The notes under the pieces: generated by a model | Databases searched by the model: none | Seen by the model: the letters and a program-made list of their open reading frames with translations, nothing else | What the model was told of the DNA's origin: nothing | Part shown: one piece after another, positions 17,395 through 20,300 of the stretch | How positions within the stretch are numbered: position 1 is the stretch's first letter | Layout: every line of letters starts with the position of its first letter | Source: Thermoanaerobaculia bacterium | GTDB lineage: Bacteria > Acidobacteriota > Thermoanaerobaculia > Gp7-AA8 | Direction: 5' to 3' | Length of the DNA stretch: 64,000 nt | Assembly (NCBI GenBank): GCA_036375135.1 | Contig: DASUSL010000091.1 | Location: 10,947 to 74,946, forward strand | Made by a program: the position numbers and the translations under genes

Positions 17395-20300
17395 CGTGCT
17401 GCTCCTGCAGCGCCGCGAACGAGCTCGCCCCATCCTTCAGTGACCGGATTCCCTCCACGCACGCGGTGGCCGCGGTGAGCGTGGTGATGCACGGGATCTG
17501 GAGCTGCAGCGCCGTGCGCCGGATGTAGGTGTCGTCGACGAAGGCCGACTTGCCGAACGGCGTGTTGATGACCAGCGCCACCTGGCCGTTGATCATCAGG
17601 TCGACGATGTTCGGCCGCGCCTCGTGCACCTTCGGCACGATCTCCGCCTCGACGCCGTGCTTCTGCAGGAACTCGCGCGTGCCGGCGGTGGCGATGATGC
17701 GGAAGCCGAGGGCGTTCAGCTCGCGCGCGACCGCCACGACGTGCGACCGCTTGTCGTTGTCGTTGATGGAGATGAAGGCGGTTCCCTCGAGCGGCAGACG
17801 CACGCCCGCGCCGAGGAGCGCTTTGGCGTAGGCCTCGCCGAAGGAGTGGGAGCTCCCCATCACTTCGCCGGTCGACTTCATCTCCGGGCCGAGGAGCGTG
17901 TCTTCTTTCGGAAAACGGTTGAAGGGGAAGACCGGCGCCTTCACGAAGTAGCCGTTGACGGGCGGCTCTTTCGTCAGTCCGAGGGAGCGGAGCGAGTGCC
18001 CGGCCATCACCTTCGCGGCGATCTTCGCGAACGAGACGCCGGTGGCCTTCGACACGTACGGCACCGTCCGCGACGCGCGCGGATTCACTTCCAGCACGTA
18101 CAGCTCGCCGTGCTGAATCGCGTACTGCACGTTCATCAGGCCGATGACGTTGAGTGCCTTTGCGAGCTCGATCGTGCGGCGGCGGATGCGGTCCTGGTCG
18201 CGGTGGCCGATGATGTACGGCGGGATGACCGTCGTCGAGTCGCCGGAGTGGATGCCGGCCAGCTCGATGTGCTCCATCACGCCGGCCACGATGACGTCCG
18301 TACCGTCGGAGACGGCGTCGACGTCGATCTCGATCGCGTCCTCGAGGAAGTGGTCGACGAGGATCGGATGTCCCGGCGCGGCCTCGACGGCGCGGACCAT
18401 GTAGCTCGACAGCGCCTCGTCGTCGTAGACGATGGCCATTGCCCGTCCGCCCAGCACGTACGACGGACGGACCACGACCGGATAGCCGATGCGGTGCGCG
18501 ACGGCCAGCGCTTCCGCTTCGTTGACGGCGGTGCCGTTGGCGGGGACGCGGATGTCGTGCTTGCGCACGAGCTCTCCGAAACGCTCGCGGTCTTCGGCGA
18601 TGTCGATGGAGTCGACGGAGGTCCCCCACATCGGCACGCCCGCCTCGTGCAGCGCCTTGGCGAGCTTGAGCGGCGTCTGTCCGCCGAACTGCACGATGAC
18701 GCCTTCCGGCTTTTCGAGCTCGACGATCTCCAGCACGTCTTCGAGCGTGAGCGGCTCGAAGTAGAGGCGGTCGGACGTGTCGTAGTCCGTGGAGACCGTC
18801 TCCGGATTGCAGTTGACCATGATGGTCTCGAAGCCGATCTCGCGCAGCGCGAAGGCGGCGTGCACGCAGCAGGTGTCGAACTCGATCCCCTGCCCGATGC
18901 GGTTCGGACCCGATCCGAGGATGATCACCTTGCGGTTGTTGGTCGGGTCGGACTCGTTCTCGGTCTCGTAGGTGGAGTAGAGGTACGGCGTCGTGGCCTC
19001 GAACTCCGCCGCGCAGGTGTCGACGCGTTTGTAGACGGGACGCAGCCCCGCCGCGTGACGCTCCGCGCGCACCTCGGACTCCGTGCGATTGGTGAGCTTC
19101 GCGATCTGGCGATCGGAGAAGCCGTTGCGCTTGAGGATGCGGAGGAACGCCGTGTCATCCTGAGCCGGCGTAGCGCGGCGAAGGACCTCCTGATTCGGAG
19201 CGACCCTCGTGCGCTCGGCAGGGGATCCTTCGCCGTCTACGCGGCTCAGGATGACACGCTGCTCGAGCTCGATGATCCGCCGGATCTCGCGCAGGAACCA
19301 CGGATCGATGTGCGAGAACGCGTGGATCTCCTCCACCGTCAGCCCGGCGCGGAACGCGTCGCCGACGGCGAAGATGCGCTCCGGCGTCGGCGTGCGCAGC
19401 AGCTCCGGCATGCGCTCCTTCGTGTAGCCGCGCGTCTCCAGGCCGGCCACGCCGATCTCCAGCGACCGCAGTCCCTTCTGCAGCGCCTCGTTGAACGTGC
19501 GGCCGATGGCCATCGACTCGCCGACGCTCTGCATCGAGAAGCTGAGCAGTTGCGGCGTGTTCGGGAACTTCTCGAACGAGAAGCGCGGGATCTTCACCAC
19601 CACGTAGTCGATCGACGGCTCGAACGACGCCGGCGTCTTCCTGGTGATGTCGTTCGGAATCTCGTCCAGCGTGTAGCCGGCGGCGAGCTTCGCCGCGAAC
19701 TTGGCGATCGGAAAGCCGGTGGCCTTCGACGCCAGCGCCGACGAGCGCGAGACGCGCGGGTTCATCTCGATGCAGATGCGGCGGCCGGTCTTCGGATGCA
19801 CGGCGAACTGGATGTTCGAGCCGCCCGTCTCCACGCCGATGGCGCGGATGATGCGCTTGGCCTCGTCGCGCATCTCCTGGTACTCGTCGTTGGTGAGCGT
19901 CTGCTGCGGCGCGACGGTGATGGAGTCGCCCGTGTGCACGCCCATCGGATCGAAGTTCTCGATCGAGCAGACGATGATCACGTTGTCCGCGCGGTCGCGC
20001 ATCACCTCGAGCTCGAACTCTTTCCAGCCGATGACCGACTCCTCGACCAGCACGCGGTGCACGGGGGAGAGGTCGAGTCCGCGCGAGACGATCGAGCGCA
20101 GCTCTTCGACGTTGTAGGCGATGCCGCCGCCGGAGCCGCCCAGGGTGAAGGAGGGGCGGATGACCAGCGGATAGCCGATGCGCGAGGCGAAGGTCTCCGC
20201 GTCGTCGACCGTGGCCGCGTACGTCGACTGCGGCACGTCGACGCCGATCGAGATCATCTTCTCTTTGAAGAGCTGGCGATCCTCGGCGGTCTTGATGGCG

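Follow-up and report, generated by a model that had tools for sequence, protein, structure and literature searches.

In the 64,000-nucleotide stretch of Thermoanaerobaculia DNA analysed here (the window; contig DASUSL010000091.1 of assembly GCA_036375135.1, a metagenome-assembled genome, MAG), the gene carB for the large subunit of carbamoyl-phosphate synthase carries a palindromic repeat of 108 nt in frame at positions 19151-19258. With good confidence, we regard this repeat as a non-autonomous copy of a hairpin-forming family that lodged in a variable loop of CarB, where it has been tolerated and inherited. A palindromic repeat in the frame of a core enzyme is of a known kind. The unexpected part is the recurrent use of one CarB loop, and it is on this recurrence, together with the wide and unexplained distribution of the element family, that the interest of the case rests.

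The element and its reading frame

The features on which the argument is built are the following:

17378-20662, minus strand: carB, carbamoyl-phosphate synthase large subunit, 1094 aa, intact host open reading frame (ORF), assigned by homology and Pfam architecture
19151-19258, minus strand: palindromic repeat element, 108 nt, whose in-frame translation is CarB residues 469-504
19151-19167: terminal inverted-repeat arm, perfect over 17 nt, with the family box GTCATCCTGAG (arm-profile E = 9e-7)
19242-19258: the other terminal inverted-repeat arm, perfect over 17 nt, CGGCTCAGGATGACACG (arm-profile E = 6e-6)
19176-19235: inner arms, which carry the second family box CGAAGGAYC / GRTCCTTCG, and a variable centre, recognised as an inverted-repeat pair and from the family architecture

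The two ends of the element are perfectly complementary over 17 nt (CGTGTCATCCTGAGCCG / CGGCTCAGGATGACACG), and a second, inner pair of arms is found at 19176-19192 / 19219-19235. On the mRNA strand, all 108 nt form one almost uninterrupted hairpin of -80.2 kcal/mol, whereas shuffled versions of the element reach -40.6 kcal/mol on average (z = -10.5), with none of 200 folding as well. The length corresponds to exactly 36 codons, which are read as residues 469-504 and followed by AF, in the frame that gives a peptide of the type VILS...AQDD. In this frame the TGA of the element is read across as CTG-AGC, and only two of the six possible frames are free of stops, namely the VILS...AQDD frame on each strand. 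A first-pass annotation of the window, made from the letters alone, had already described an in-frame repeat on the minus strand, with 38 residues and the same reading of the TGA, and the translation of the ORF at 17378-20662 agrees with it on these points. Its strong mRNA hairpin is likewise borne out, even though the terminal repeats that it put at about 30 bp are perfect over 17 nt and the element as a whole forms one imperfect hairpin.

Several searches for a known identity were negative. Rfam gave no match at the gathering score in the whole window, and a relaxed threshold, applied to 19100-19310 only, returned just generic hairpin (miRNA-precursor) matches far below that score. No intrinsic terminator or promoter was found within the carB element, a blastn search of a plasmid collection returned no match, and a Pfam search of four insert peptides yielded no family. 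An uninformative comparison of the insert peptide with the protein collection gave no candidates. An intein or an intron is ruled out by the size of the insert (36 codons) and the unbroken reading frame.

Position of the insert in CarB

The host protein is 100% identical over its full length to a protein recorded at NCBI from a Thermoanaerobaculia MAG, and it shares 83-94% identity, along the whole length, with 119 other CarB proteins. Its Pfam matches (PF25596 twice, PF02786 twice, PF02787 and PF02142) correspond to the layout of this enzyme, with two halves, each made of a preATP-grasp and an ATP-grasp domain, that are separated by the oligomerisation domain and followed by an MGS-like domain at the C terminus. 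The match to the oligomerisation domain, PF02787, ends at residue 470, which is position 51 of the 80-position profile. CarB from Escherichia coli (1BXR, 1JDB and others) aligns on both sides of the insert, through its residues 427-478 on the N-terminal side and 487-542 on the C-terminal side. Judging by this alignment, the element stands in for the loop at about 479-486 of the E. coli protein, and the insertion site is a loop inside the oligomerisation domain, which separates both synthetase halves. The first-pass description of the site as a linker between the two halves therefore holds loosely, as this domain does lie between them, but the site is a loop within PF02787 and not a bare linker.

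In CarB proteins of other phyla, the distance between the motifs flanking this site ranges from 24 to 43 aa, with 30 aa in 41 of 72, and the position tolerates changes of length in general. An AlphaFold2 model places the insert between the helices 454-475 and 503-512 and gives residues 475-501 a local confidence score (pLDDT) below 50; the model was obtained from an alignment of 77 sequences, is poor overall (mean pLDDT of 65.6), carries little weight and offers no basis for a fold search.

Insertion and inheritance

The 120 CarB proteins were aligned with MAFFT, and the loop was defined as the region between LREIRKIVELE and the downstream conserved motif. Such an alignment had been proposed in the first-pass annotation, and it shows the loop to be the only large internal indel region of the protein. 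About half of the 120 proteins have a loop of 8 aa of the RNVATTPL type, including close relatives such as P0003 (RDITNTPL, 92% identity) and P0009 (KNVASTPL, 90%); DNA of the empty site was obtained for the loci L001 and L211. Homologous loop residues devoid of any inverted repeat, which in related species would have spoken against an element-derived insert, are not present in these related CarB loops.

The closest relative, P0002 (94% identity), comes from an independent JGI assembly, and its locus (L002) contains the same element in a version of 84 nt. Its junctions match those of the window exactly (AGCGT/GTCATCC...GGATGAC/ACGGCGTTCCT, the slashes marking the ends of the element), and the centre, otherwise variable, is also common to both. 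Over the 84 positions that can be aligned, identity between the two copies is 89%, as compared with 91.4% for carB outside the element, and the indels between them total 24 nt, a multiple of three. Since the same element with the same junctions is present in a relative of 94% identity, the insertion is older than the split of the window and L002 lineages, with the reading frame preserved from then on. The tolerance of the insert by the protein, as first proposed, is thus consistent with an intact ORF and with an element that has diverged about as far as the gene around it.

It might be argued that nothing mobile is involved, and that the insert is a lineage-specific loop that is palindromic by chance, an assembly chimera, or part of a pseudogene. 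The source is, after all, a MAG represented by its sequence only. We give this explanation hardly any credence: a MAG protein at NCBI is identical to this CarB throughout its length, and the ORF is intact and matches its 119 homologues from end to end. Because the same insertion, with the same junctions, is found in the independent assembly, an assembly artefact is excluded. In addition, the window has the same element at an unrelated site, and more than 100 other genomes contain it as well.

A second copy in the window

15429-15533, plus strand: second full-length copy of the element, between a phosphoglucomutase-type gene and an SDR gene

This copy aligns end to end with the one in carB, one arm of 44 nt being 93% identical, which upholds the initial view of the carB repeat as one of two copies of the same element. 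A profile hidden Markov model, built from 263 distinct family arms taken from other genomes, finds exactly four arms over the 64 kb, that is, both ends of both copies (E from 9e-7 to 0.017), and no further copy in the window is significant with this arm profile. The terminal 13-mer occurs four times in the window, as against 1.3 expected by chance.

The second copy lies at the edges of its neighbouring genes. Its left end supplies the TGA stop codon (15439-15441) of the phosphoglucomutase-type gene, whose product ends in ..EIDDVSS*, whereas those of the relatives end in ..EEIG*; its right end, GGATGACAC, holds the ATG of the SDR gene at 15526. In L211 (90% CarB identity), an element is present at the same site between both genes (about 11230-11330, reverse strand), again with the SDR ATG within GGATGACAC, and in L003, which has no element at this site, GGGATGACG is still present at the start of the SDR gene. 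As a separate observation, the site between both genes in L002 (15070-15606) contains an unrelated insert of 535 nt with a called ORF of 83 aa and no hairpin element.

The element family and its flanks

The species-representative genomes were scanned for the pattern GTCATCCTGAG-N52-82-CTCAGGATGAC, which gave at least 119 matching stretches in many phyla. Those listed include members of the Thermoanaerobaculia and Terriglobia, Hymenobacter, Flavobacterium, Mucilaginibacter, Chloroflexota, Gemmatimonadota, Verrucomicrobiota, Planctomycetota, Bradyrhizobium, Nitrobacter, Clostridia, Bifidobacterium, Patescibacteria, Nitrospirales and Abditibacterium. The family shares one architecture: a T or C, the box GTCATCCTGAG, a variable stem, the box CGAAGGAYC and a variable centre, followed by the mirror image. 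The signature of the superfamily can be written as YGTCATCCTGAG...CGAAGGAYC..., with the consensus arm CTGTCATCCTGAGCGCAGCGAAGGATCTC. Beyond the conserved box (24 nt), the arm-to-arm score averages 9.7 within the same copy versus 0.1 with other copies, so that the arm sequences drift across the family while complementarity is kept. The conserved strings gave only matches to unrelated primers in the searchable literature, and we have found no name for the GTCATCCTGAG/CGAAGGAYC superfamily in Rfam, in Pfam or in that literature.

Outside the CarB loop, the family seems to be essentially intergenic. Among 144 copies from other genomes checked for reading frame, 13 lie in long stop-free frames, and none of the nine of these that were tested is flanked by Pfam domains on both sides. 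In about 243 kb from 12 carB-centred Thermoanaerobaculia loci (without L211), most of the copies found are those of the carB loop.

The term used in the first-pass annotation, MITE (for miniature inverted-repeat transposable element), would in its classical sense imply a deletion derivative of an insertion sequence (IS) with a DDE transposase, one that is recognised through its terminal inverted repeats, moves by cut and paste with a transposase acting in trans, and duplicates its target site. The 17-nt perfect terminal inverted repeats, the small size and the dispersed copies fit this description, and a DDE transposase gene is found 9 kb from carB in the relative L210, with no demonstrated link to the element. 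However, in 143 copies, direct repeats of 2-9 nt in the flanks occur at chance frequency (seven of 2 nt, with 8.9 expected, and none of 3 nt, with 2.2 expected), and the carB copy has no such repeat. The flanks are instead complementary to each other: the inverted repeat extends into them by at least 1 nt in 90% of the 143 copies, by at least 3 nt in 31% and by at least 5 nt in 12%, whereas 25%, 1.6% and 0.1%, respectively, would be expected by chance, and some copies in Hymenobacter sit at the tip of flanking palindromes of 15-20 nt. Furthermore, the whole element is a hairpin rather than a pair of terminal repeats around unrelated DNA, and all-against-all ORF clustering revealed no recurrent neighbour protein family in about 4 kb around the 119 listed loci, a search that did not cover whole genomes. 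A classical MITE is therefore quite improbable, and the term stands only insofar as the insertion derives from a repeat element: in the strict sense it is contradicted by the lack of target-site duplications among the 143 copies, by the extension of the repeat into the flanks and by the lack of a recurrent IS or transposase next to the copies at the 119 listed loci. A link to small GIY-YIG nuclease genes is likewise unsupported, as the clustering at the 119 listed loci showed no recurrent neighbour.

Two further arrangements of the family were observed. At L129 (34-161), L153 (434-560), L161, L192 and L133, the element is framed by two stretches of 13-15 nt, each the perfect reverse complement of the other. 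These loci belong mainly to Hymenobacter (L133 is from a Saprospiraceae MAG), and the flanks differ from locus to locus (e.g., gtaaaaagtacggct/../agccgtactttttac); it looks as if the element sat in the loop of a terminator-like hairpin. In some genomes, such as the Thermoanaerobaculia MAG DATISF01 and that of L182, the element alternates with a repeated spacer in tandem arrays, whose period is about 150 nt. The arrays are located at:

L157, 6750-7150: tandem array
L180, 5972-6359: tandem array
L132, 1647-1889: tandem array
L112, 6675-7024: tandem array
L182, 755-1151: tandem array

Recurrent filling of the CarB loop

The insert of the window is one of many. Loops of at least 17 aa are present in 43 of the 120 CarB proteins, and at least five families of hairpin repeats are represented in them. 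The GTCATCC superfamily, to which the element belongs, fills the loops of 17 proteins and uses all three frames: the first gives VILS...AQDD or ...LRMT, the second CHSE...GMT, and the third VSSR...GRDD, this last one being possible only in the CCCGAG variant, where the TGA is removed. Other classes consist of an (AGATCGC)n palindrome (IADRGSQ...RSAIRDL), a palindrome of the GGAACTC type (SGSSEFLG...RGTPRNSE), loops of the xESSS/LDxSTT type, and others that include the REP-like VGRTSVRPDGWKP (REP, repetitive extragenic palindromic). Distinct hairpin elements, with folding energies between -59 and -108 kcal/mol, are likewise present in the DNA of six more filled loops. Two loops are rearranged: that of L207 (11372-11539) has a duplicated right end of 30 nt (..LGRDDTWDAALGRDDTW), and that of L209 (11372-11566) has an extra right half upstream of the full element, amounting to one and a half copies.

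In a rough neighbour-joining tree of the 120 proteins, calculated with the loop excluded, the 8-aa state is scattered throughout. Parsimony on this tree requires at least 24 changes between filled and unfilled loops; for the GTCATCC superfamily taken by itself, the minimum is 15. Both counts are approximate. Many loops of 10-16 aa look like the decayed scars of former insertions, as judged from residual motifs such as ..ARMT.. in P0030 and P0035, VIP..EGSP in P0029, and, in L003, GATGGCGGACCTTCC, a match to the inner arm of the copy in L002. A metagenome scan for close CarB relatives recovered only proteins of 55-76% identity, none of them with the motif; their loop length is nearly constant, and they were used as an out-group.

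Recurrence in one loop could mean that the insert or its hairpin has been recruited for a function, such as a translational pause between the synthetase halves, the stabilisation of the mRNA, or a new surface on the oligomerisation domain, and that positive selection fills the loop. The independent filling of the same loop again and again would be in line with it, as would the retention of the insert since the split from the L002 lineage, the compensatory stem change between the two orthologous copies, and the complementarity that the arms of each copy keep across the family. We nevertheless consider recruitment unlikely. At least five unrelated families in three frames provide unrelated peptides (VILS.., CHSE.., VSSR.., IADRGS.., SGSSEF..), about half of the close relatives retain the 8-aa loop, and many loops resemble decayed remnants, such as ..ARMT.. 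in P0030 and GATGGCGGACCTTCC in L003. In addition, the element has no terminator or promoter signal, and the insert is predicted with low confidence in the structure model.

A different proposal is that the loop is a true integration hotspot, reached by several unrelated hairpin families, the GTCATCCTGAG/CGAAGGAYC superfamily among them, through a structure- or palindrome-directed route without target duplication, by which elements would often end up capping a longer palindrome. We hold this to be possible, if doubtful. The idea of the empty loop as a hairpin that attracts hairpin elements is not supported as a general rule, as only one of four native sites, that of L206, is unusually foldable (in the top 3% of windows, the other three lying at 27-60%); a mini-palindrome, CGTCG-N3-CGACG, is present at two of the four native empty sites. 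If the hotspot were real, it would imply an undescribed and widely shared mechanism for the spread of hairpins, with the CarB loop as its natural reporter.

A probable tolerated passenger

Taken together, the evidence is best accounted for by a hairpin repeat that landed, in an ancestor common to the window lineage and its relative of 94% identity, in a short and length-tolerant loop of the oligomerisation domain of CarB, replacing the loop of about 8 aa with one of about 40 aa. Only insertions with a length multiple of three and in a stop-free phase survive, which for this element means one phase in three. Because its length is a multiple of three, its frame has no stops, and the loop lies between two helices, ribosomes would read through the insert, and the protein would carry an extra and probably disordered peptide in the loop. 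Once inherited, the insert shrinks through in-frame deletions. Given that unrelated families and frames provide unrelated peptides, and that half of the relatives have no insert, we infer that the insert is a tolerated passenger and not an adaptation. The family would spread by a structure- or single-strand-dependent route, as is thought for REP sequences and for the palindromic elements of Rickettsia, and not through the cut-and-paste activity of a DDE transposase. The recurrence in the loop, in turn, would reflect a high flux of hairpin repeats in this lineage filtered by a permissive site, possibly with some target preference.

Some observations weigh against this explanation or weaken its support. 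The first concerns the insertion itself, which was initially described as a mobile-element-derived insertion of about 36 aa. Even though the element does span 36 codons, the native codons of the loop have been replaced and not just split: about six are missing relative to the empty relatives, the net change being from 8 aa to 40 aa, and a similar loss is found in two other pairs of filled and empty sisters (L203 and L204; L205 and L206). Since native codons are missing, either the event would not have been a clean insertion, or deletions would have followed it. The second is that at least one stem pair has changed on both sides, from C-G to T-A, between the window and L002, a double change that hints at constraint on the hairpin itself, something not called for in a purely neutral passenger. 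In addition, the neighbour-joining tree joins very similar proteins and is rough, which makes the counts of events approximate, and the score used to rank the 120 homologues came from a query with the insert in it, with a slight enrichment for similar inserts as a consequence. Finally, the CarB of the window is known here as a sequence within 64 kb of one MAG, and the description of the insert as a disordered surface loop is a weak prediction of the structure model.

In-frame palindromes in essential genes are best known from Rickettsia, whereas here they occur at high frequency in a free-living lineage of soil acidobacteria. The CarB homologues, considered together, display insertion, inheritance, internal deletion and decay to scars, and thus offer a natural system for studying how proteins absorb selfish DNA. 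The superfamily extends from Bacteroidota to Alphaproteobacteria with no target duplication or linked enzyme, which turns its route of spread into a testable question. These repeats also have an effect on annotation, since they give rise to spurious ORFs and displace the starts and stops of genes, as illustrated by the copy that provides one gene with its stop codon and the neighbour with its start.

Other repeats in the window and in relatives

The window contains other hairpin repeats that are distinct from the element in carB. One of them (AATGTGGCGACGGGCTTCAGCCC.. / ..GGGCTGAAGCCCGTCACCACATT, 15652-15707) is in frame in the SDR gene (15526-16281), to which it adds 18 residues; it is also present in the L001 orthologue and absent from those of L002, L003 and L206. 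A palindrome of the perfect type (GGACAGGCGATCCCGCCTGTCC / GGACAGGCAGGATCGCCTGTCC, 33010-33063) is in frame in murG (32158-33600, plus strand), as residues 285-302, between the two Pfam glycosyltransferase-28 domains, with related copies at 54032-54106 and 54266-54319. At least two genes in this single window of 64 kb, carB and the SDR gene, thus have such inserts, and murG is probably a third.

Another hairpin family, made of GTGCTGAG repeats facing CTCAGCAC repeats, is found at 20691-20764, 31266-31354 and 57385-57444, and one of its copies precedes the carB start codon by about 30 nt. Two long inverted repeats were also detected: one at 45334-45491, with arms of 74 nt that are 78% complementary, in a stop-free frame of 562 codons with no Pfam match, and one at 1798-1914, with arms of 49 nt that are 92% complementary. 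In L210 (17208-18533 and 19213-20551; a 5.08-Mb contig, P0043), the phosphoglucomutase-type, DAC and pterin-binding genes are shorter or split relative to the other loci, which suggests frameshift errors of the assembly or real pseudogenes.

Comparison with known systems

The closest parallel is that of the Rickettsia palindromic elements (RPEs), for which in-frame integration in many unrelated genes has been described (PMC10969869). Two sources present RPEs (Ogata et al. 2000) as short palindromes in genes for functional, often essential, proteins, giving rise to a peptide compatible with the fold, and with no known transposase (PMC10969869, PMC3733652). The carB element is likewise a palindrome in frame in an intact gene, and the same applies to the repeat in the SDR gene of the window. 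However, the host is here a free-living member of the Thermoanaerobaculia with 67% GC, in contrast to an AT-rich obligate intracellular alphaproteobacterium. The element measures 72-108 nt, whereas RPEs have about 150 nt, and the conserved boxes appear to differ. Moreover, this family is present in many phyla, is mostly intergenic elsewhere, and has hit one loop repeatedly.

REPs of the GTAG and CGTC superfamilies are G+C-rich stem-loops that are found mainly outside genes and can provide adjacent ORFs with stop codons through their ends, with a minority inside known genes that encodes 20-30 aa and with head-to-head dimers that make larger hairpins (Di Nocera et al. 2013, PMC3733652). The present family shares with them the G+C-rich stem-loop, the mostly extragenic location, the ends that supply stop codons and the minority that encodes a peptide within genes. 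It differs in its ends, which consist of a T or C followed by GTCATCCTGAG (T/C + GTCATCC) and have no GTAG or CGTC tag, and in its unit, where two conserved boxes and a variable centre belong to one hairpin of about 75-110 nt, contrary to the palindromes of 20-40 nt in REPs.

REPINs resemble this family in having two inverted halves in a hairpin of about 100 nt and in the lack of a target-site duplication. They are mobilised by RAYT tyrosine transposases, presumably through a single-stranded hairpin intermediate, and REPIN families are usually lineage-specific, whereas the one described here crosses the boundaries of phyla. In addition, neither a RAYT nor any other recurrent gene is found near the copies at the 119 listed loci, and there is no GTAG tag.

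In-frame bacterial MITEs are reported for QMITE1 of Coxiella (PMC5896051), for the enterobacterial ERIC and RU sequences (PMC2759123) and for Anabaena (PMC10969869). As in our case, these are small non-autonomous repeats that produce translational fusions or insertions in host ORFs. However, QMITE1, ERIC, RU and the Anabaena MITEs have terminal inverted repeats together with target duplications and IS relatives, and target-site duplications are lacking in this family. By analogy, the element in carB resembles, in the way it would work, the palindromic elements known in frame in genes, namely the RPEs and the intragenic REPs.

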